A stretch of DNA of 64,000 bases from Alphaproteobacteria bacterium (GCA_965242495.1 OZ251446.1:2530160-2594159), one strand, 5' to 3'. Positions 1-10,529 are shown, counted from the stretch's first letter. A program made the numbers and translations. Notes: generated from the sequence alone by a model not told the origin.

Positions 1-220
1 GGACGAAGCCGAGGGCGTAATAGGCCCCGGCCTCGGTCTCGGCGCGGATATGGGCCGCCCCGTTGCGGTCGCGGACGATCTCCGCCGGCGCGTCGAGGCC
101 GGGAGCGCGTATCTGCCCGCCGATCTGCGGCAGCGAGCTCCGCAGCCACAGATAGCCGGCCCCGCCCGCGACCGCGGCGGCCAAAGCGAGCGCCGCGGCC
201 GCGCGCCGGGCCCATTTCAT
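1..220 (-). CDS. penicillin acylase family protein, N-terminal fragment (runs off window start)
   Basis: Reverse translation from ATG (complement of 218-220) gives MKWARRAAAALALAAAVAGGAGYLWLRSSLPQIGGQIRAPGLDAPAEIVRDRNGAAHIRAETEAGAYYALGFV. Signal-like N-terminus followed by ...HI.A....YYALGFV, as in penicillin amidase family N-termini. Confidence 0.5.
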   Translation of the reverse strand, partial: MKWARRAAAALALAAAVAGGAGYLWLRSSLPQIGGQIRAPGLDAPAEIVRDRNGAAHIRAETEAGAYYALGFV

Positions 221-260
221 CCCGCTTTCATCCCGCGGCCCCGCCTGCGGCCGCCGCCCC

Positions 261-1526
<1,266 letters not shown>

Positions 1527-1580
1527 TCAGTAAAATAACGTATATTTTCTGACGAAACGAACTTCGGCGAGGATGGTCCG

Positions 1581-2204
1581 ATGGCCCATGTGGCCGACAA
1601 GATCATGAAAAGGGTGCGCGCGCGCGGCCGGGGACGCTGGGTGTGCGCGCCAAAGGATTTTCTCGACCTCGGCAGCCGCCAGGCCGTCGACCAGGCGCTT
1701 TCGCGCCTCGTCAAGGCCGGCCGGCTGCGCCGGGCCGGGCGCGGCCTCTACGACCTGCCGAGAACGAGCGGCGTGCTGAAGCGGCCTGCGCCGGTCGATC
1801 TCGACGCCGCCGTCGCGGCCCTCGCGCGGCGGGACGGCATCCGCATCATGCCCGACGGCGCGGCCGCCGCGCACGGCCTCGGTCTCACCAACGCCGCGCC
1901 CGCCAAGGCCAGCTACGCGACGGACGGCGCTTCGAGGACGGTCGAGATCGACGGAAGGACGATCCGGTTCCGGCACGCAGGTCCCCGCATCATGCGGTGG
2001 GCGGGCCGGCCGGCGGCTCCGGTGGCTCAGGCGCTACGATGGCTCGGCCCCGACGCCGCCGCGGACGCGCGGGTCGTCTCGATTCTGAAGCGCCGCCTTC
2101 CCGACGCGGTGAAGCAGGACCTGTACGTCAACGGCCGCGACCTGCCCGGCTGGGCGCTGCCGCTCGCGCGCGACGTCGCGTCCGACCGGGCCGTCGCGGC
2201 GTGA
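1581..2204 (+). CDS. DUF6088 / AbiEi-like (winged-HTH antitoxin-type) domain protein, orphan
   Basis: N-terminus KDFLDLGSRQAVDQALSRLVKAGRLRRAGRGLYDLPR matches my recollection of the AbiEi_4/DUF6088 N-terminal wHTH pattern (L.RLV..G.L.R..RGlY). No AbiEii nucleotidyltransferase partner adjacent. AT-rich putative promoter just upstream (ttgtcg-N16-tatatt, ~1524-1552). Confidence 0.55.
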   Translation: MAHVADKIMKRVRARGRGRWVCAPKDFLDLGSRQAVDQALSRLVKAGRLRRAGRGLYDLPRTSGVLKRPAPVDLDAAVAALARRDGIRIMPDGAAAAHGLGLTNAAPAKASYATDGASRTVEIDGRTIRFRHAGPRIMRWAGRPAAPVAQALRWLGPDAAADARVVSILKRRLPDAVKQDLYVNGRDLPGWALPLARDVASDRAVAA

Positions 2205-2262
2205 CGGCCGAAGCCTTCAAGTCCTTCCTCGCCTTTCGGAACGGGACAGGCGGGACGTGGGT

Positions 2263-2535
2263 TCAGTAATCGGGTCGGTATCGCGCCGCGTTCACCGCCC
2301 ATTCATTTGCCACCATGCGCCGGCCAAGGTCGGCTATCCCGCCCGCGCGGCATGTCGCCACCATGCACCCGTATCTATCTTCCGCCTCCGCCTCCGCGCC
2401 TACAGCTTTGATGATAGGCAAAATGAACACCAAGAGACCCACTAACGCGAACACGACCATGAACGCCACAATGAGCTTCAAGATACATCCAAGCGGTCGT
2501 TCCCAAGGCCGCCACTCCCGCTTTGGCGCCGTCAT
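2263..2535 (-). CDS. hypothetical small single-TM membrane protein
   Basis: 90-aa ORF with hydrophobic segment ILKLIVAFMVVFALVGLLVFILPII. Markedly lower GC than surroundings. Lies ~240 nt downstream (minus strand) of direct-repeat copy 2. Function unknown. Confidence 0.3.
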   Translation of the reverse strand: MTAPKREWRPWERPLGCILKLIVAFMVVFALVGLLVFILPIIKAVGAEAEAEDRYGCMVATCRAGGIADLGRRMVANEWAVNAARYRPDY

Positions 2536-2774
2536 TCGTCACACCCCTTCCAATTCCCCGCCGTCATACCACAGCGCTGCGCCTTCTCTTTGAAGCCGCC
2601 GCCGACGCGTCCATTGCAGCCCTCTGCGCCGCCCGCGCAATCCCGGCCAAGCTCGGGACTCATAGCCGGAAGACGATGGTAGCGTCGGCGCAGATGGCGC
2701 CCAAGAATAGCGTCGGCGCATCGGTCATGTCGCGTCGCGATGCGCCGTCGATCATCGCCGCCCCGGCTCTGCAC

Positions 2775-2900
2775 CGCGCTCCTCCGCCCGAGGCTTAGCC
2801 CCGACGACCCCGGGGCGCAAGCCTGCGTCCCGGTTCGATTGCGGACGAGACGCGGAGCGCCGCGGGAAGGCGGCCCCGGCCCGCCGCCCGGCGCGCGCAA
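2775..2900. repeat. copy 2 of the ~125-bp direct repeat (see 1296-1430)
   Basis: Pairwise comparison with 1296-1430 by eye. On the minus strand it retains GGAGGAGCGC…ATG at the same spacing as hemB but then encodes only a 31-aa remnant ORF. Confidence 0.6.
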
Positions 2901-3029
2901 CCGCCAGCCCGGTCGGCGAACCGTTCGGGTTCAAAGGCCTCGCGTCCCTCGCTTTGCAGCCCTCAAAACCGACACCGCTTGATACGGCGCATAACGATAG
3001 TTGGGTTGAAACGCCACTGGGAGACGACG

Positions 3030-3234
3030 ATGCGCACTACGCTCGACATCGACGACGACCGGGAAGTTCGTCTCGGACGTGACGCGCGAGGCCTTGCAGG
3101 CGCGCTCGCATCCCGCCCCCGCCGACGGATCGCAACGCGGATTGCATGCATATGGCTTCGATCCCATTCCGGCGGGAGAAGCCGTCGTCACCGACGAACT
3201 GGTCAACGAGCTTCGCGAGGAGGCGGGAGTCTGA
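3030..3234 (+). pseudogene. vapB: vapB-like antitoxin, apparently frameshifted
   Basis: ATG 3030 encodes MRTTLDIDDD (typical VapB N-terminus). It then runs into Arg-rich nonsense. The +1 frame from ~3061 encodes a plausible acidic antitoxin C-terminus (KFVSDVTREALQARSHPAPADGSQRGLHAYGFDPIPAGEAVVTDELVNELREEAGV*) and ends TGA 3232-3234, 3 nt before the vapC start. One extra G in cgGGg at ~3058-3062 explains it. Confidence 0.5.
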
Positions 3235-3237
3235 CTC

Positions 3238-3672
3238 GTGAGAGCGTTGCTCGACGTCAACGTCCTGATCGCGCTGCTCGACGAGAAACATACCCACCAC
3301 GCGGCGGCGTCGGACTGGCTCTCGGCGCGCATCGAGTCGGGATGGGCGTCCTGTCCCCAAAACGCAGAACGGATGCATTCGCATCCTCTCCCAACGCCTT
3401 GGGCGTCGGGGAAGCTGGCGCGTTTCCGGACCGCCGTGTCCGCGCCGTATCACCGGTTCATCGCCGACGACGTAAGCCTGCTCGACGATGCCGTCGCGGA
3501 CCGTCGACGGTTGTCGGACCCCGACCATGCCGAACGCTATCTCGCCAGCTTCGCTTGGCGCTACAACCGACGCTACCGACTCCAGACCATGATCCTGCGC
3601 TTCATCCACAGCGCCGCTCATACGCAACCCATCCCTTATCCAGCCTTCGTCCCGGCTGAGTCTCACGGATAA
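3238..3672 (+). CDS. vapC: PIN-domain VapC-family toxin with an internal compensating double frame disruption
   Basis: GTG start. MRALLDVNVLIALLDEKHTHHAAASDWLSARIESGWASCP matches a PIN/VapC subfamily as I recall it (LLDVNVLIAL…HH…GWATCP). The in-frame stretch QNAERMHSHPLPTPW is aberrant. The +1 frame over ~3358-3400 gives KTQNGCIRILSQRL, matching the expected …TQlgFiRlSSNP… block. Frame 0 resumes with …HRFIADDVSLLDD. The two indels fall in runs ccccaaaa (~3357) and cgggg (~3400). Confidence 0.55.
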   Translation: MRALLDVNVLIALLDEKHTHHAAASDWLSARIESGWASCPQNAERMHSHPLPTPWASGKLARFRTAVSAPYHRFIADDVSLLDDAVADRRRLSDPDHAERYLASFAWRYNRRYRLQTMILRFIHSAAHTQPIPYPAFVPAESHG

Positions 3673-3764
3673 GCAGGTATCGTTACGTCACAGGCGTCGC
3701 CGAGGCGATCCCCCTCCCGACTCCCGGCAGGAGGAGTGCGAGCGGCGCCGGTTGCTCACTCCTC

Positions 3765-3795
3765 TTGACGGGGGGCCGGGAGAGGCGTTTATGAT
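3765..3795 (+). promoter_or_regulatory. candidate sigma70-type promoter for the ATPase-PIN-ligase operon
   Basis: TTGACG (3765-3770) … TATGAT (3790-3795) with a 19-nt spacer (suboptimal). Preceded by an 8-bp-stem hairpin GAGGAGTG…CACTCCTC (3731-3764). ~95 nt upstream of ATG 3890. Confidence 0.3.
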
Positions 3796-3889
3796 ACTTG
3801 GCGGAGTTGGAACACGATGCATGACGAGCGGCATCCGGTGAGTCGGGCGGACACGGTGCGGCTGTCGGGAGCGCGACGGAGAAACGGCG

Positions 3890-5239
3890 ATGCTGAAGCA
3901 TTTGGAGATCCAGAATTTCAAGGCGTGGCGGGAAGCCGATTTGGCGTTCGGCAAGGTGACCGGATTCTTCGGAACCAACAGCGCCGGTAAGAGCAGCCTC
4001 CTCCAGCTCCTCCTGTTGCTCAAGCAAACCCGGAACGCCACGGACCGGGGGCTGGTTCTCGATTTCGGCGGGCCGGAGAGCCTGACGAACCTGGGGACGT
4101 TCGCCGATATCGTCCATGGCCAGGACAGACGAAAGCGAATACGCTGGCGTCTGGACTGGACGTTGCCCAAAACGCTGAACATCGAGGATCCGAGGAGCCC
4201 GAAGAGCAAGCCGCTATTCAACGGGGACAGTCTGAGCACGGAGTGCGTAGTCGGCTGGAAAGAGGAACGTCCTTGGCCGCACTCGTTGAAATACCGGTTC
4301 AACGACGTGATGTTCTGGAAGGAGGGACCCAATCTGGAAACGGACAGCCCGAAATTCGAATTTTTGCGCACCAAAGGCCGGCGCTGGCCGCTTCCGAATC
4401 CGGTCAAGACTTACCGGTTTCCCGATCAGGCAAGGACTTACTACCAGAATTCGGATTTTCTCGGCGATTTCGAGCTGGCTTACGAGGATCTGATGGACTC
4501 GATTTACTATCTCGGACCGTTGCGCGATCCTCCGAAGCGGGAATACCACTGGTCCGGATCGAGCCCGAGCGACGTCGGCCAGCGCGGCGAGCGCACGGTG
4601 GATGCGATACTCGCCGCCATCCGCGACGGAAAGGCGAGGACGCTGAGGCCCCCGGCGCAAGGAGTACGACAGCAACCATTCCAGGAGGTCATCGCTCATT
4701 GGTTGCGTGAGTTAGGATTGATCAGCGAATTCAATCTCGACGAGATCGCCAGAGGAACGAACCTGTACCGGGCGATGGTCAAGACCTCCCCGTCGAGTGC
4801 GCCGACGGCCCTCACCGACGTCGGATTCGGCGTCTCCCAGGTTCTGCCGGCGCTGGTCCTGCTCTACTACGTCCCGGATGGCTCCACGGTGCTGATGGAG
4901 CAACCGGAGATCCATCTCCATCCCGCCGTGCAAAGCGGTCTGGCCGACGTCATGCTGAACGTCGCCAAGGTGCGAAACGTTCAGATCGTCGTGGAGAGCC
5001 ACAGCGAACACTTGCTGCGGCGCCTGCAACGCCGGGTCGCCGAACAGAAGGCGCCCTCCGCGGACGTGAAGCTGTATTTCGTTTCCTCGCAACAGGGCCA
5101 GGCGCGCGCGTCCGACCTGCGCCTGAACGAATATGGAGAGATCGAGAAGTGGCCGGACAAGTTCTTCGGCGACGAGATGGACGAGATCTCGGCGATCGTG
5201 AAGGCCGGTTTGAAAAGAAAAATGGAACGATCCGGATGA
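3890..5239 (+). CDS. AAA_21/ABC-type (SMC-like) ATPase, DUF3696-like C-terminus
   Basis: Walker A GTNSAGKSSLLQ at the N-terminus (MLKHLEIQNFKAW… as in AAA_15/AAA_21 defence ATPases). C-terminal LMEQPEIHLHPAVQSGLADVML…VESHSEHLL (signature/Walker B/H-loop-like). Terminal …IEKWPDKFFGDEMDE, which I associate with DUF3696 (not fully certain). GC ~60%, lower than flanks. Confidence 0.8.
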   Translation: MLKHLEIQNFKAWREADLAFGKVTGFFGTNSAGKSSLLQLLLLLKQTRNATDRGLVLDFGGPESLTNLGTFADIVHGQDRRKRIRWRLDWTLPKTLNIEDPRSPKSKPLFNGDSLSTECVVGWKEERPWPHSLKYRFNDVMFWKEGPNLETDSPKFEFLRTKGRRWPLPNPVKTYRFPDQARTYYQNSDFLGDFELAYEDLMDSIYYLGPLRDPPKREYHWSGSSPSDVGQRGERTVDAILAAIRDGKARTLRPPAQGVRQQPFQEVIAHWLRELGLISEFNLDEIARGTNLYRAMVKTSPSSAPTALTDVGFGVSQVLPALVLLYYVPDGSTVLMEQPEIHLHPAVQSGLADVMLNVAKVRNVQIVVESHSEHLLRRLQRRVAEQKAPSADVKLYFVSSQQGQARASDLRLNEYGEIEKWPDKFFGDEMDEISAIVKAGLKRKMERSG

Positions 5240-5712
5240 CGTTCGTCGTCGATACCAACGTCGCGATAGCCGCCAACGGCCGCAATACTCACGTGGACGA
5301 AGAATGTCAGTTGGCATGTGTGGAGAAGCTGGAGTTTCTTAAACGAAAAGAAGTAGTCGCCATCGACGGCGAAGGTCTCATTCTGGAGGAATACAGCAAC
5401 AGTCTAAACTACTCAGGAGGACCAGGAGTCGGAGACGTGTTCTTCAAGTATGTGCACGACAACCAATACTGGGACGATCGTGTCCACAGGATCCCGGTGA
5501 CGCGGTCCAAGAACGATGGACGAGGCTTCGAAGAACTGCCGGAGAATACCTTCGACCCCTCGGACCGAAAGTTCCTGGCGGTCGCGGTGAAGGCGAAAGC
5601 GGTCGTTCTGAACGCGACCGACAGCGATTGGGGCAAGCACGCGGCGCTGATGGATGAGCTGAACGTCAAGGTGGAGCAACTTTGTCCGCAACACGCCCGC
5701 CGCGAGCAATGA
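5236..5712 (+). CDS. PIN-domain nuclease
   Basis: ATG 5236 overlaps the upstream stop (ATGA). MTFVVDTNVAIAANG (first PIN Asp), …DPSDRKFLAVAVKA (third Asp + hLAhA), …VVLNATDSDW (TxDxD fourth-Asp motif). 158 aa. Confidence 0.7.
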   Translation: MTFVVDTNVAIAANGRNTHVDEECQLACVEKLEFLKRKEVVAIDGEGLILEEYSNSLNYSGGPGVGDVFFKYVHDNQYWDDRVHRIPVTRSKNDGRGFEELPENTFDPSDRKFLAVAVKAKAVVLNATDSDWGKHAALMDELNVKVEQLCPQHARREQ

Positions 5713-6410
5713 CCGCGAGGGCCGGTTCCAGCCCGCCCTGGAACGCGAAGTACCCCGGCATTCCGTACTGGCCTTGGTCCCCGGCCATCGGCCGCGGCGA
5801 CGACCGGCACCCGAACCCGGATCGGTTCGTCGGCGAGGACGTGGTGGCGACGGAGAAGCTGGACGGCGGCAACACGCTCCTGCACGCCGGCGAGGTCTAT
5901 GCGCGCAGCGTCGCCGCCCCTTCCGACGCGAAGTGGATGGCGATGGTGAAAAAACACCATGTCTGGAAGGTAACCGAGCCCGACGTCTGGCTGTACGGCG
6001 AGGACGTCTACGGCGTGCACAGCATCGAGTACGATCCCGTGCCGGAGCAAGCGACGTTCTACGCATTCGCATTGCGCGGCGGCGACGGCGCGTTCGCCGC
6101 CTTCGCCGAGGTCGAGGCGTATGCGAGGCCGCGGGAGATCCCGGTCGTCCCGGTGCTGTTCCGGGGCCGTTTCGGGTCGGTCGCGGAGATACGCGAATTC
6201 GTCGAACACGCCCACGGCGAGCCGTCCGCGCTCGGCGGCGAGCGGGAGGGCGTCGTGATGCGGCTGGCGCGGGGGTTTCCGGCGGCGGAATTCCCGGACG
6301 ACGTCTGCAAGAGCGTCCGCCTCGGACACGTGCAAAGCGACGAGCACTGGACCAGGAACTGGAGGCCGTGCCGGATCGCGGGGCGGGCCGGGGCCGGAGC
6401 GCGGCGGTGA
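5709..6410 (+). CDS. ATP-dependent RNA ligase family (nucleotidyltransferase) protein
   Basis: ATG 5709 overlaps the upstream stop (ATGA). Motif I VATEKLDGGN (KxDG adenylyl-lysine), motif IV GEREGVVMR (EGhVhK-like), motif V CKSVRLGH. 233 aa = minimal NTase domain (Rnl/PF09414-like). A DNA-ligase/capping-type NTase cannot be excluded from motifs alone. Confidence 0.7.
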   Translation: MTARAGSSPPWNAKYPGIPYWPWSPAIGRGDDRHPNPDRFVGEDVVATEKLDGGNTLLHAGEVYARSVAAPSDAKWMAMVKKHHVWKVTEPDVWLYGEDVYGVHSIEYDPVPEQATFYAFALRGGDGAFAAFAEVEAYARPREIPVVPVLFRGRFGSVAEIREFVEHAHGEPSALGGEREGVVMRLARGFPAAEFPDDVCKSVRLGHVQSDEHWTRNWRPCRIAGRAGAGARR

Positions 6411-6522
6411 CGGACGCCGCCCGCCGGGAATCGTCTTGGCCCTTCCGGCGGTCGGGGGTATCGTCGCCGCAGCGGCTGCGTCCGTCGTGCCGCCGCCGCC
6501 GAACCGACGAGGAGCAGGAACC

Positions 6523-7500
6523 ATGAGGACGACGAGAACCTGCGCGATCGCGCTCGCCGGGCTGGCCAGCGCCGCGGTCGCGGCTCCGGCCGCGGCCGAA
6601 GTCACGCTGAACGGGGCCAGCTGCTTCCCCATCGGCAGCCCGCCGGGCAAGCCGTTCGAGGAACTGGTCAAGGCGGTGAACGAGCGCGGCAAGGGCGCGC
6701 TCCAGATCAAGATGGTCGGCGGCGCGCCGGCGATCGGCAGCCCCTTCACCCTGACCCAGAAGATGGCGCGCGGCGCCTACGACGTCGTCGGCTGCCCGGA
6801 GGCCTATTTCGGCAACGTGCTGCCCGAGGCGCCGGCGCTGCGCCTCGCCCAGCGGTCCTACGCCGAGCTGCGCAAGAACGGCGGCATCGCCTACATCCAG
6901 AAGCTGATGAACGCCAAGAACATGCATTTCGTCGCCCGGCATTCCGACCAGGGGCCGTTCTATCTGTGGCTCAGCCGCGCCATCGACAAGCCCGACCTCA
7001 CCGGGCTGCATCTCCGCGTCTCCCCGGTCTACACCGCCTTCTTCAAGTCGCTGGGGGCCACGGTCCAGCGCTCCAACATCCAGCAGGTCTACACCTATAT
7101 GGAGAACGGCACCGTGCAGGGCTTCGGCTGGCCGGCGCTGGGCTGGGTGCCGTCCTGGGCCAAGGTCACCAAGTTCCGGGTCGAGCCGGGCTTCTACAAC
7201 GCGACGCTGCACACCATCGCCAATCTGAAGAAGTGGCGGTCGCTGACCGACGCGCAGCGCGGCGTGCTGGCCGCCGTCGCCGAAGAGTTCGAGGTCCGGT
7301 CCGATCCCGACAGCGCGGAGATGAAAGCCGCGCTCGCCGAACGTCACGCCTGGGCGGCGAGCCAGGGGTTGAAGGCGATCACCTTCACCGGCGCCGACGC
7401 CGAGAAGTGGTCCGGCGCCGCGGTCGAGGCCGCCTGGAAGGAGGTCGCCGACCGCAGCCCCGAACACTGGAAGAAGCTCCGCGCCCTGTTCGCCGAGTGA
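6523..7500 (+). CDS. dctP: TRAP transporter substrate-binding protein (DctP family)
   Basis: Start at MRTTRTCAIALAGLASAAVAAPAAA (signal peptide) after GAGGAGCAGG SD. DctP-like periplasmic binding-protein sequence. Followed by dctQ and dctM. Confidence 0.85.
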   Translation: MRTTRTCAIALAGLASAAVAAPAAAEVTLNGASCFPIGSPPGKPFEELVKAVNERGKGALQIKMVGGAPAIGSPFTLTQKMARGAYDVVGCPEAYFGNVLPEAPALRLAQRSYAELRKNGGIAYIQKLMNAKNMHFVARHSDQGPFYLWLSRAIDKPDLTGLHLRVSPVYTAFFKSLGATVQRSNIQQVYTYMENGTVQGFGWPALGWVPSWAKVTKFRVEPGFYNATLHTIANLKKWRSLTDAQRGVLAAVAEEFEVRSDPDSAEMKAALAERHAWAASQGLKAITFTGADAEKWSGAAVEAAWKEVADRSPEHWKKLRALFAE

Positions 7501-7573
7501 GAGCGAGCGAGGGACCGCGGCGGGGCGGCGGCGCAGCCCGCCCCGCCGCGCCTGCGCTGACGGGCGAGCGGCG

Positions 7574-8095
7574 ATGGCGCGGCGACTCGATCGCTTCGAC
7601 GACGCCTTCGCGCATTCGCTGCGCTGGCTGGCCGGGGCGACCGCGGCCTCCATCGGCCTGATCGCGGTCCTGATCCCGCTCAACCTGCTGCTCATCAAGA
7701 CCGGCTGGGGCAGCATGTGGTGGCTCTACGAGGCGGTCGAATACGCGCTGTTCGCGGGCGTGTTCGCCTGCGCTCCCTGGGTCCTGCGCCAGGGGGCGCA
7801 CGTCCGGGTCGACGTCGTCGTCTCGGCCCTGTCGGGGACGATGGCGCGGCGGCTGGAGCGGACGCTCGACATGATCGGCGCGGCGCTCTGCCTCCTGCTG
7901 TGCTTCTACGGCGTCCGCGCCGGGCTGGCCGAATACGCCGACGGCACGCTGCCCGACAAGGACCTCCGCATCGAGAACTGGTACATGATGGCGATCTTCG
8001 CCCTGTCCTGCCTGCTGCTCGCGATCGAGTTCGGCTTGCGCCTGCGCCGCGCCGGAACGGCGCAGACCGCCGGGCGGGCGGACGCGGGATTCTGA
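7574..8095 (+). CDS. dctQ: TRAP transporter small permease (DctQ family)
   Basis: 173 aa, four hydrophobic segments, position between dctP and dctM. Confidence 0.8.
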   Translation: MARRLDRFDDAFAHSLRWLAGATAASIGLIAVLIPLNLLLIKTGWGSMWWLYEAVEYALFAGVFACAPWVLRQGAHVRVDVVVSALSGTMARRLERTLDMIGAALCLLLCFYGVRAGLAEYADGTLPDKDLRIENWYMMAIFALSCLLLAIEFGLRLRRAGTAQTAGRADAGF

Positions 8096-8098
8096 GCC

Positions 8099-9544
8099 GT
8101 GGAGTGGTATTCCGCCCTCGTGCTGCTGCTGGGCTCGGTCTGCGCCCTGCTGTTTCTCGGCCTGCCGGTGGCGCTGGCCTTCTTCGCCGCCAACGTGCTC
8201 GGCACGGCGCTGTTCATCAACGGCGACATCGGCCTGGTGTTCATGCCGTTGGAGTTCCACAACGCGATCAAGTTCACCCTGTCGCCGATCGCGCTGTTCC
8301 TGCTGATGGGCGAGATACTGCTCCAGACCGGCGTCGCCTTCCGGGCGATCGGCGCGGTGGACCGCATGATCGCGCGCGTGCCCGGGCGGCTCTCGGTGGT
8401 CTCGATCGCCGGCGGCGCGGTCTTCTCCTCCCTGTCGGGCTCGACCATCGCCAACACCGCCATCCTCGGCTCGGTGCTGCTGCCGGACATGACCCGGCGC
8501 GGCTACCGGCCGGCCATCTCCATGGGGCCGATCATGGCGGTCGGCGGCATCGCCATGCTGATCCCGCCCTCGGCCCTGGCGGTGCTGCTGGCCAGCCTCG
8601 CCGAGCAGTCGGTGGCGCAGCTGCTGATCGCCGGCCTGATTCCGGGCCTCCTGATGGCGGCGCTGTTCCTGGCCTACGTGATCGGCCGCTGCATCCTGGA
8701 CCCGACGCTGGCCCCGACCTACGAGCCCGACGAGAGCGCGCTCGACGAGCCGGTGACGCTGACGCTCGATTTCGGCCGCGCCCTCCGCTGGTCGGGCAGC
8801 TATGACGGGCGCTGGCGGCGGACGATCCATCGGGCCCTGCCGGCGCTGTGCTACATCCTGCCGCTGTTCGCCATCTTCGTCGTCGTCGTCGGCAGCATCT
8901 TCTTCAAGATCGCGGCGCCGACCGAGGCCGCGGCGCTCGGCTGCCTCGCCTCCCTCGGCGCCTGCTATTTCTTCCGCCTCTACCGGCGGCGGATCCGGAT
9001 CGGCGGCATCGAAGGCGCCGATTTCGACTGGCGGGCGATCGCCAGATCGCTGATGGAGACGGCGAAGATCAACACCATGATCCTGTTCATCATCGCCGGA
9101 TCGCTGGTGTTCGCGCAGGCCCTGTCCAACTCGGGCGCCACCGACGGCCTGCTGCGCCAGGTCCAGGCGATGGACCTCACGCCGCTCACGGTGGTCGTCG
9201 CCATGATGCTGATCCTGCTGTTCCTCGGCGCCTTCATGGATCAGGTCAGCATGCTGCTGCTCACCCTGCCCTTCTTCCTGCTCGGCTCGCAGTCCCTCCA
9301 GGTCGTGTTCGACATCGACGTGATCTGGCTGATGGTGCTGATGCTGATCGCCATGGAGGTCAGCCTGCTGACGCCGCCCTTCGGGCTGCTGCTCTACGTG
9401 ATGAAGGGGGTGGCGCCAGCCGACACCAGGATCGGCGTCGTGGTCCGCTCGGCCCTCCCCTTCATCGCCATCGAGCTGCTCGTCCTCGGGCTGCTGATCC
9501 TGGCTCCGGAGGTCGCGACCTGGCTGCCGTCCAAGGTCGAATAG
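8099..9544 (+). CDS. dctM: TRAP transporter large permease (DctM family)
   Basis: 481 aa polytopic membrane protein with DctM-like N-terminus (…LLLGSVCALLFLGLPVALAFFAANVLGTALF…). Confidence 0.9.
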   Translation: MEWYSALVLLLGSVCALLFLGLPVALAFFAANVLGTALFINGDIGLVFMPLEFHNAIKFTLSPIALFLLMGEILLQTGVAFRAIGAVDRMIARVPGRLSVVSIAGGAVFSSLSGSTIANTAILGSVLLPDMTRRGYRPAISMGPIMAVGGIAMLIPPSALAVLLASLAEQSVAQLLIAGLIPGLLMAALFLAYVIGRCILDPTLAPTYEPDESALDEPVTLTLDFGRALRWSGSYDGRWRRTIHRALPALCYILPLFAIFVVVVGSIFFKIAAPTEAAALGCLASLGACYFFRLYRRRIRIGGIEGADFDWRAIARSLMETAKINTMILFIIAGSLVFAQALSNSGATDGLLRQVQAMDLTPLTVVVAMMLILLFLGAFMDQVSMLLLTLPFFLLGSQSLQVVFDIDVIWLMVLMLIAMEVSLLTPPFGLLLYVMKGVAPADTRIGVVVRSALPFIAIELLVLGLLILAPEVATWLPSKVE

Positions 9545-9548
9545 CGGG

Positions 9549-10529
9549 TCAACCGCCGGGCGCGCCATCCAGCAGGACCTCGAGTCCCAACAGCGCCGGA
9601 TGCTCGCGCGTGACGACGTAGGCCGGGATCGGGCGCAGATAGTCGCGGAAGCGGCCCTTGTCCTCGAAGCGGCGGCGGAACGGCGAGGCCGCGAAGGCCG
9701 TCCCCAGCCGGGGAACGATGCCGCCGCCGATATAGACCCCGCCGCGGGCGCCGAGACAGAGCGCCAGATTGCCGGCCGCGGTCCCCAGCATGGCGCAGAA
9801 CGTATCCAGCGCCTCGACGCAGCGCGGATCGGCCCCGGCGAGGGCGCGGCCGGCGATCGAAGCCGGCGTCGCGTCTTCGGCCCCGGTCCCGTCGCGCGAA
9901 GCGATCGCGCGATACAGGTTGACCAGCCCGGGGCCCGAGACCGCGCGCTCGATCGAGACGTGGCCGAACTGCGCGGCGAGCGCTGCGGCGAGCGCCCGCT
10001 CGCGGTCGTCGACCGGGGCGAGGGTCGCATGTCCGCCCTCGGTGGCCAGCGGAATCCAGCCGTCCCCCGTCGGCACCAGGCCGGACACCCCGAGCCCGGT
10101 GCCGGGGCCCAGCACGGCGATCGGCCAGCCGGGCTGGGGCCGTCCGCCGCCGATCCGGGTCACGTCGTTCGCGCCCAGCGCCGGCGCGGCGAGGGCGAGG
10201 GCGGCGAAGTCGTTGATCACCTCCAGCCGGTCGAGACCCAGCGTCCGCTCGAGGTCGGAGATGCGGAACGACCAGCCGCGGTTGGTCATCGCCACCGCGT
10301 CGCCGGTCACCGGCGAGGCGACGGCGATCGCCGCGCGGACGGGCGCCGGGTCGGGGGCCGTCGCGTCGAGATAGGCGCGGGCCGCGGCGGCGAGGTCGGG
10401 ATGGTCGCCGCAGGCCAGCACCCGCACGGCGCGCGGCCCGCCGCCGCCGCCGCCGCCGTCCAGCAGCGCGAAGCGCGCATTGGTGCCGCCGATGTCGGCG
10501 ATCAGCCGCGGCGGGCCGGTCTCCGGCAT
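9549..10529 (-). CDS. glk: glucokinase
   Basis: C-terminal 326 aa of listed ORF 9549..11798 from MPETGPPRLIADIGGTNARFAL… (ROK/Glk ATP-binding motif). The remainder of that ORF is an out-of-frame artefact over otsA. Confidence 0.85.
   Translation of the reverse strand: MPETGPPRLIADIGGTNARFALLDGGGGGGGPRAVRVLACGDHPDLAAAARAYLDATAPDPAPVRAAIAVASPVTGDAVAMTNRGWSFRISDLERTLGLDRLEVINDFAALALAAPALGANDVTRIGGGRPQPGWPIAVLGPGTGLGVSGLVPTGDGWIPLATEGGHATLAPVDDRERALAAALAAQFGHVSIERAVSGPGLVNLYRAIASRDGTGAEDATPASIAGRALAGADPRCVEALDTFCAMLGTAAGNLALCLGARGGVYIGGGIVPRLGTAFAASPFRRRFEDKGRFRDYLRPIPAYVVTREHPALLGLEVLLDGAPGG

Follow-up and report, generated by a model that had tools for sequence, protein, structure and literature searches.

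A conserved RNA ligase gene joined to HEC-03-type ATPase-PIN cassettes: a candidate cut-and-reseal defense module

The pairing of an ATP-binding cassette (ABC) ATPase with a nuclease is an established sensor-effector design of immunity (bioRxiv 10.1101/2024.01.29.577857). One such pair, described by Payne et al., is HEC-03 (Hma-embedded candidate 3), which consists of an ABC ATPase and a VapC-like PIN protein. In E. coli it reduced phage plaquing, both genes were needed and the system was toxic on induction; control of the PIN protein by the ATPase was proposed, and the paper mentions no ligase (bioRxiv 10.1101/2024.01.29.577857). A wider combination was predicted by Burroughs and Aravind in 2016 and is summarized in a single sentence of PMC5499597: a conflict system of a PIN_3/COG1569 protein, an ATP-grasp RNA ligase, an ATPase and an HNH protein, in whose operon the ligase was proposed to neutralize the nuclease. 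The subject here is a three-gene cassette encoding an ABC-type ATPase, a PIN nuclease and a minimal RNA ligase, located on a stretch of 64,000 nucleotides from an Alphaproteobacteria bacterium (GCA_965242495.1, OZ251446.1:2530160-2594159; hereafter the window, with positions counted from its first letter).

The ATPase and PIN genes of this cassette are already named and experimentally validated as HEC-03. What is new is the ligase as third component: the ligase-bearing form is absent from both PADLOC and the HEC-03 paper, and literature searches returned no experimental or dedicated description of it. The original prediction, made from the sequence alone, had taken the triad for a candidate undescribed system. 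This fails for the ATPase and PIN, and a PIN-ligase-ATPase-HNH operon was predicted in 2016; it stands for the ligase, which matches no PADLOC model. That the window holds a HEC-03-type cassette with a genuinely associated ligase is highly probable. The reading favored for its function, to which a probability of roughly 0.5 is given, is that a HEC-03-type defense module gained a ligase that reseals the RNA breaks made by the PIN protein, either for self-protection or for recovery. The three genes are:

3890-5239, plus strand: ABC-type ATPase gene, 449 amino acids (open reading frame (ORF) call); HEC-03 ATPase, NsnB-like, with a C-terminal DUF3696 helix
5236-5712, plus strand: PIN nuclease gene, 158 amino acids, VapC-like, likely effector (match to the HEC-03 PIN model)
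5709-6410, plus strand: minimal ATP-dependent RNA ligase gene, 233 amino acids, nucleotidyltransferase domain only (Pfam PF09414)

The genes are joined by ATGA start/stop overlaps at both junctions, at 5236-5239 between ATPase and PIN and at 5709-5712 between PIN and ligase. A scan with the ATPase, using one genome per species, returned 263 relatives, and the best 80 of these 263 were taken as loci for comparison (given below as L numbers). The PIN gene directly follows the ATPase in all 80, and in 70 of them the next gene after PIN, with the same orientation and often with an overlap, encodes a ligase homolog. Since the same order recurs in 70 of the 80 related loci, the arrangement is not a product of chance. 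Both the coupled same-strand genes and the single three-gene conflict cassette that had been proposed are thus found as described. The added ligase is conserved across about ninety genomes, and the ligase-bearing loci come from at least eight phylum-level lineages, the carriers being Alpha- and Gammaproteobacteria, Vicinamibacterales, Bryobacterales, Palauibacter, Rhodothermales, Latescibacterota, Binatia and Thermodesulfobacteriota. Across the 80 loci, no other conserved neighbor or integrase was found beside the cassette, and no kinase or phosphatase within it. In the ATPase tree, the ligase-less loci form basal branches, to which one secondary loss (L019) is added. The ligase-less locus of a Methylobacter (L077) is a plain two-gene insertion adjoining hydrogenase-maturation-like genes.

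Most carriers (L001-L080) are metagenome-assembled genomes, among them the cyanobacterium Aphanocapsa feldmannii and Candidatus Palauibacter. Aphanocapsa feldmannii is a marine sponge symbiont. The set of carriers suggests that exchange of the cassette may take place within one type of microbial community.

The relatives of the ligase were examined as well. Metagenomes were scanned with a ligase profile, which gave 41 loci. Ligases with at least 63% identity to that of the window occur there in the cassette or its remnants, and those with 44-56% identity have no ATPase or PIN gene nearby. The contigs of these distant ligases are of lower guanine-cytosine (GC) content, some are 347-463 kb long, and the neighboring genes match phage protein families. 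In IMG/VR, a 48%-identical ligase lies on a viral contig of 436 kb, and relatives with 26-36% identity are found on other large viral contigs. Jumbo phages in GenBank, namely Atu_ph07, XacN1, CcrBL9 and huge uncultured phages, likewise carry relatives, mostly with 29-38% identity.

In seven loci (L101/L102 and, on four further contigs obtained by protein look-ups, L125-L129) the same kind of ligase occurs in a second arrangement. Here, a ligase 63-65% identical to that of the window comes first, followed by an AAA_21 ATPase of 433-435 amino acids and a PIN-like protein of 151-154 amino acids. This ATPase and PIN correspond to the PADLOC candidate PDC-M07 (A 2e-161, B 6e-52). They are not orthologous to those of HEC-03, as the ATPases are only 23-25% identical and the PIN proteins share no BLAST similarity. 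In a ligase tree rooted on DR_B0100 of Deinococcus radiodurans, the 86 HEC-03-linked ligases form one monophyletic group, which has the likewise monophyletic 7 PDC-M07-linked ligases as its sister, and the phage-like group is sister to both together. The dedicated ligase clade is found only with ATPase-PIN pairs, of two kinds. Because the HEC-03-linked and PDC-M07-linked ligases are sister clades, one ligase lineage became specialized for ATPase-PIN modules, and two different modules took it up. Among the comparative arguments for a ligase that acts together with the nuclease and not just beside it, this two-module uptake is the strongest.

Some further observations were made on these relatives. 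Ligases 45-54% identical to that of the window were found on large phage-like contigs of up to 463 kb (L106-L122 and L133; for example, L114 5001-5645). On L114, a separate ORF at 3058-3501 matches the N-terminal part of the phage RNA ligase family phrog_968, which hints that phages hold a split, two-piece ligase. The PDC-M07-type triad of L125 (6001-8447) adjoins an MmeI-type restriction-modification gene and a TrwC relaxase. The cassette itself is not phage-borne: a search of viral contigs gave only three distant two-gene relatives, on small contigs and all without ligase.

The conservation of the three proteins was compared in 58 intact triads plus the window. The ligase had a mean pairwise identity of 0.71, compared to 0.67 (ATPase) and 0.60 (PIN protein), and the ligase was more conserved than the PIN protein in 98% of pairs. 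The pairwise identities of ATPase and ligase are correlated (Spearman 0.75). As the most conserved of the three proteins, the ligase fits the behavior of an enzyme with a constant substrate, which recognizes RNA ends and not a protein partner that evolves fast.

The way in which cassettes decay points in the same direction as the repair function proposed above. Only clear truncations were counted, as alignments can run through a natural stop codon. A truncated PIN gene with a full ligase gene was found in L015, L018, L048, L093 and L095/096, and an intact PIN gene without ligase inside the ligase clade in L019 only. This pattern, in which PIN appears to be lost before the ligase, would argue in favor of repair. 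Four loci, L013, L015, L034 and L048 (at about 9360-10100 each), are decaying cassettes in which deletions join an N-terminal PIN fragment to the ligase gene. In L013 and L034 a part of the N-terminus of the ligase is missing, whereas L015 and L048 have lost only about 20 residues there. All four retain a full-length ATPase match, which in L013 contains an in-frame stop. In L018 (9356-10652), an insertion of about 1.3 kb lies between the ATPase gene and an N-terminally truncated PIN gene, and the ligase is intact.

Nucleotide homology between the window and its closest relatives is limited to 3800/3867-6390/6428; it starts at 3800 (L002), 3835 (L008) or 3867 (L001), and none lies further upstream. 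Because this homology stops at the cassette edges, the comparison indicates that the three genes move as one unit into unrelated sites. A search for terminal direct or inverted repeats at the cassette ends gave short, chance-level matches only. The cassettes have a GC content of 0.55 on average, compared to 0.66 for their flanks. Within the cassettes, the GC content of the ligase gene exceeds that of the ATPase gene in 63 of 63 loci (0.62 versus 0.55 on average; 0.74 versus 0.66 at third codon positions, GC3), which suggests a separate origin or a different codon selection inside the cassette.

All three proteins of the window keep intact catalytic motifs, and each assignment made in the original prediction (an AAA_21/ABC-type ATPase, a PIN protein with four acidic-motif regions and a minimal RNA-ligase nucleotidyltransferase) was borne out by the results below. 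The smaller features referred to are:

3800-3889, plus strand: upstream leader of the cassette, beginning at the start of nucleotide homology to related cassettes
3971-3997, plus strand: Walker A GTNSAGKSS (K34), conserved in 59 aligned ATPases
4883-4924, plus strand (ATPase residues 332-345): Walker B-like STVLMEQPEIHLHP, with an E-Q dyad replacing the usual D-E
5150-5188, plus strand: C-terminal DUF3696 tail WPDKFFGDEMDEI (Pfam DUF3696), conserved in the aligned ATPases
5856-5858, plus strand: codon of K50, the predicted adenylylated lysine of ligase motif I (EKLDGGN)

The ATPase matches the Pfam families AAA_15 (8e-23), AAA_21 (1.7e-19) and DUF3696 (2.8e-9, residues 390-434). Of the HEC-03 models, which were taken from PADLOC-DB v2, it matches PDLC04148 over almost the full length (E-value 1.5e-198; residues 1-447 on model positions 1-455 of 458). 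The Menshen NsnB model of PADLOC is matched with an E-value of 1.2e-60 and AriA of PARIS only partially (E-value 7.9e-26). The LMEQPEIHLHP stretch is at least 95% conserved among the 59 ATPases, with a glutamine at the position of the usual catalytic glutamate. An arginine replaces the glutamine of the Q-loop (YLGPLR), and GFG replaces the SGG signature. In other ABC ATPases, the E-to-Q change traps the ATP-bound state, and for this reason the protein may act as a slow switch rather than as a motor. A comparable deviation of Walker B, from D-E to E-N, is reported for Menshen NsnB (PMC12065111). In the Menshen models, two DUF3696 tails clamp the PIN-like domain of NsnC (PMC12065111); by analogy, the DUF3696 tail of the window ATPase is likely the docking site of the PIN protein.

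The PIN protein is a single domain and matches the HEC-03 model PDLC04147 (E-value 2.5e-70; residues 1-156 on model positions 1-157 of 159). It should be noted that the names are swapped between database and paper: in PADLOC the HEC-03B model is the ATPase and HEC-03A the PIN protein, while HEC-03A of the paper is the ATPase. With the default thresholds of Pfam, no match to the PIN protein was obtained; sub-threshold PIN/PIN_3 matches were present in 25 of 33 members. The AlphaFold model has a predicted local distance difference test score (pLDDT) of 91, and Foldseek ranks VapC toxins and PIN-type RNase P highest (probability about 1.0), the best VapC structures being those of Rickettsia, Shigella and Mycobacterium. 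The residues D6, E52, D110, D129 and D131 are invariant in 33 homologs and fill the four acidic-motif regions. Since a VapC-like fold is combined with an intact active site, the PIN protein is predicted to cut an essential RNA. Sequence and profile searches of the PDB with the PIN and ligase proteins gave nothing meaningful.

The ligase matches Pfam PF09414 (RNA_ligase, E-value 3e-17) and the phage families phrog_34045 (4.7e-28) and phrog_24030 ('RNA ligase', 4.4e-25), the latter only at positions 133-332 of 342, which is the C-terminal two thirds. Its motifs EKLDGGN (K50), YGED (E98), FYAF (F120), EGVV (E180-G181) and CKSVR (K201, R204) are invariant in 32 homologs; the role given to K50 follows from motif I as it is established for covalent nucleotidyltransferases. 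The structure model is weak (pLDDT 59). Its top 14 PDB matches are all ATP-dependent RNA ligases with a template modeling score (TM-score) of only about 0.3-0.4, and the first 13 have a probability of 0.8-1.0; archaeal Rnl3 ligases are among the best matches. The protein consists of the catalytic domain only, with no appended substrate-binding domain of the Rnl2 C-terminal or Rnl5 N-terminal OB type. The closest studied homolog is DR_B0100 of D. radiodurans (34% identity over the full length, E-value 3e-31). This enzyme forms enzyme-AMP but showed no joining activity on its own (PMC5397189); it was first annotated as a DNA ligase, and its operon is induced by DNA damage (PMC11833690, PMC5397189). 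By analogy, the domain-only ligase of the window may need a partner.

Taken together, a mechanism can be proposed for a horizontally mobile anti-phage cassette of the HEC-03 type to which a third gene has been added. The ATPase would sense infection while holding and regulating the PIN protein. Upon infection, it would release or activate the PIN protein, which would cut an essential RNA and thereby stop phage growth. The ligase would reseal the 3'-OH/5'-phosphate breaks made by the PIN protein; in this manner it might buffer a leaky, toxic PIN activity in uninfected cells, permit recovery after an aborted infection, or both. It is quite conceivable, though held more tentatively, that the module owns a dedicated RNA ligase which makes its RNA cleavage self-limiting or reversible and which possibly works only when docked. 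A ligase that works only when docked on its nuclease or ATPase partners would also explain why DR_B0100 is inactive alone.

There is precedent for the individual steps. Phage ATP-dependent ligases mend cleaved tRNA and require 5'-P/3'-OH ends (PMC7824862), and RtcB reverses the damage made by MazF (PMC5408214). As the cassette contains no kinase or phosphatase, ends that need no healing, such as those of metal-dependent, ligatable cuts, would fit. A literature search returned no direct statement on the end chemistry of PIN/VapC cuts. The ancestry of the ligase is of the repair type, given the phage-like sister clade and the distant relatives in jumbo phages and in the Deinococcus ligase-PARG-kinase operon. 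The cut-and-reseal logic gains support from this phage-ligase sister clade and from the second arrangement of ligase, ATPase and PIN.

Several points weigh against resealing. The two-gene HEC-03 defends without ligase, and thus the ATPase alone is able to restrain the PIN protein. A constitutively active ligase would undo the defense, so extra regulation would be needed. DR_B0100 showed no joining on its own (PMC5397189). Expression of VapC induces rtcBA, which responds to tRNA halves with a 2',3'-cyclic phosphate (PMC7790460), and such ends could not be sealed by an ATP-dependent ligase unaided. Finally, the pLDDT of 59 is a low confidence for the ligase model, and L019 retains ATPase and PIN without ligase.

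Other explanations have to be weighed against the same evidence. The ligase could be a co-effector, which together with the PIN protein converts the target RNA to a form beyond the reach of phage repair enzymes. This could be achieved by nucleotide excision and resealing, by circularization of the fragments or by AMP capping of 5'-phosphate ends. RloC-type nucleases, which excise a nucleotide to defeat repair (PMC7824862), are a precedent, and a repair enzyme inside a defense system would otherwise be paradoxical. The catalytic residues kept in both proteins, the tight linkage recurring in two gene orders and the archaeal Rnl3 ligases among the best structural matches all agree with such a role, although these matches rest on a weak ligase model. 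Given that the two-gene HEC-03 already defends, that the ligase clade derives from repair-type ligases and that no sequence feature points to a non-canonical reaction, the co-effector role is considered unlikely. A similarly doubtful option is that the ligase is a separate passenger, brought in by the clustering of defense genes and engaged in the general repair of host tRNA or rRNA cut by the nucleases of phages or competitors. Relatives of the ligase do occur in repair operons without any PIN protein, the ligase persists where PIN and ATPase are truncated or lost (L093, L095/096), and its GC content above that of its partners in 63 of 63 loci suggests a separate origin. In 70 of 80 loci from unrelated contexts, however, the ligase gene immediately adjoins the pair in the same orientation, often with an overlap, and it co-diverges with the ATPase (r 0.75), neither of which would be expected of a passenger. 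Its monophyletic clade, found only with two kinds of ATPase-PIN pair, is far more tightly linked than clustering in defense islands would produce.

It is also rather improbable that the cassette is mainly a selfish addiction module, with the PIN protein as toxin, the ligase as enzymatic antidote and the ATPase as tuner, so that its loss would kill the cell. The toxicity of induced HEC-03 speaks for this, as do the minimal mobile unit found at unrelated sites, the adjoining genes of toxin-antitoxin type and a decay that favors the loss of PIN ahead of the ligase. However, the two-gene core gives measurable phage defense, and pairs of ABC ATPase and nuclease are an established design of immunity; moreover, addiction and defense are not mutually exclusive. 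Very unlikely is a DNA substrate, with the PIN protein nicking or trimming DNA or RNA-DNA hybrids and the ligase serving as a DNA ligase of the DR_B0100 ('LigB') type. The first annotation of DR_B0100 as a DNA ligase in a DNA-damage-induced operon would fit, and the PIN-like superfamily includes DNA flap nucleases (PMC5499597). Against this, the PIN model best matches VapC RNases and PIN-type RNase P, the ligase matches Pfam RNA_ligase and the RNA ligase PHROGs of phages, and no DNA joining was shown for DR_B0100 (PMC5397189). Resealing of PIN-made RNA breaks is kept as the preferred reading.

At its own site, the cassette belongs to about 5 kb of accessory genes that are bounded by hemB (minus strand, 261-1481) and by the gene of a TRAP-transporter binding protein (6436-7500, Pfam DctP). 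The original prediction had the cassette start at 3765. The ATPase, however, begins at the ATG at 3890, in agreement with its homologs, which open with MLxxLEIxNFKAW; positions 3765-3889 are a leader of 125 nucleotides upstream of this ATG, and the whole of 3673-3889 is non-coding. The leader at 3800-3889 probably holds the promoter and the ribosome-binding site. A promoter scan of 3600-6600 gave no site and no sigma-70 consensus, the number of terminators in the same range was no higher than in shuffled sequence, and an Rfam search of 1-8000 gave no match. The proposed lower-GC islet holds for the ATPase gene (0.60) and the PIN gene (0.56), but not for the ligase gene, which at 0.70 is close to the whole window (0.71).

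The two defense-type neighbors that had been named, a DUF6088/AbiEi-like gene and vapBC, were both found, the latter in decayed form. The AbiEi-type antitoxin-like gene lies at 1581-2204 on the plus strand (PADLOC AbiEi, E-value 3.6e-53). No AbiEii nucleotidyltransferase partner was recognized among the ORFs downstream of it, and the gene looks like an orphan or a remnant. Together with a small ORF, it is flanked by a direct repeat of 144 nucleotides (84% identity, 1303-1446 and 2776-2919), which may represent a duplicated intergenic element or a trace left by an insertion. The decayed vapBC is located at about 3027-3672 on the plus strand. Its VapB-like start (MRTTLDIDDD) does not share the frame of the 51-amino acid ORF abutting the vapC-like ORF, and the latter matches TIGR00028 over residues 1-111 only, below the cut-off. 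The last approximately 33 residues of the vapC-like ORF were considered as a transposase tail, for which Pfam gave no support.

To our knowledge, RNA-cutting defenses such as PrrC, RloC, PARIS and VapC-like effectors have been viewed as one-way, in that the host cuts and only the phage repairs. If the proposed resealing is true, bacteria are able to make their abortive-infection systems reversible or to protect themselves against them. The domain-only ligases of which DR_B0100 is an example, enigmatic so far, would obtain a natural partner as well as a substrate. A validated system would gain a third component, and the ligase would come to be covered by the PADLOC or DefenseFinder models of HEC-03 and PDC-M07. 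With about 2.6 kb, the cassette is self-contained and widespread, and thus directly testable by experiment.

When the cassette is compared to the described systems, HEC-03 is the closest. The ATPase and PIN genes of the window follow in the same order with the same coupling (an overlap of 4 nucleotides), and both models are matched at full length. HEC-03 was defined and tested as two genes, whereas the window and 70 of the 80 nearest loci add the ligase gene; in addition, the window locus is not embedded in an Hma system. Menshen shares the NsnB-like ATPase with its DUF3696 tail, altered Walker B, arginine in the Q-loop and GxG in place of SGG, as well as a PIN-fold partner as the likely binding target of the tail. 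However, the NsnA (ParB/DUF262) sensor is absent from the window cassette, and no conserved upstream gene was found in the 80 loci. The PIN domain of NsnC is inactive and fused to a C-terminal toxin, whereas the PIN protein of the window is a single domain that keeps its catalytic acids, and Menshen is without ligase. PARIS differs in the partner of the ATPase, which is the Toprim nuclease AriB instead of a PIN protein. VapBC has in common the VapC-like fold with its acidic active site; there is no VapB antitoxin with the PIN gene of the window, the gene upstream being the ATPase, which presumably controls the PIN protein as in HEC-03.

The remaining systems are alike in the ligase. The PDC-M07 arrangement combines the same three functions, and its ligases are the sister clade; the order is ligase-ATPase-PIN, not ATPase-PIN-ligase. 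The system of Burroughs and Aravind, compared here through its one-sentence summary in PMC5499597, likewise has an operon that unites a PIN protein with an ATP-dependent RNA ligase and with an ATPase. According to that summary it also includes HNH, which is not conserved beside the window-type cassette in the 80 loci. An HNH gene was seen about 3 kb from a PDC-M07-type cassette in L110 only. DR_B0100 is also a domain-only nucleotidyltransferase, with the 34% identity to the window ligase given above. It heads an operon with DR_B0099 (PARG) and DR_B0098 (HD/kinase) (PMC11833690), and its partners are thus end-healing and de-ADP-ribosylating enzymes instead of a nuclease and an ATPase. The conflict of PrrC and RloC with Rnl1 and Pnk of phage T4 is similar in logic, as RNA cutting is controlled by an ABC ATPase and ATP-dependent ligases mend the cut; moreover, the nearest relatives of the window ligase outside the cassettes are phage-encoded. 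In the window, the nuclease is a PIN protein and not HEPN, and the kinase-phosphatase is absent from the cassette. Whereas in that conflict the nuclease belongs to the host and the ligase to the phage, both are encoded here in one operon of the host.

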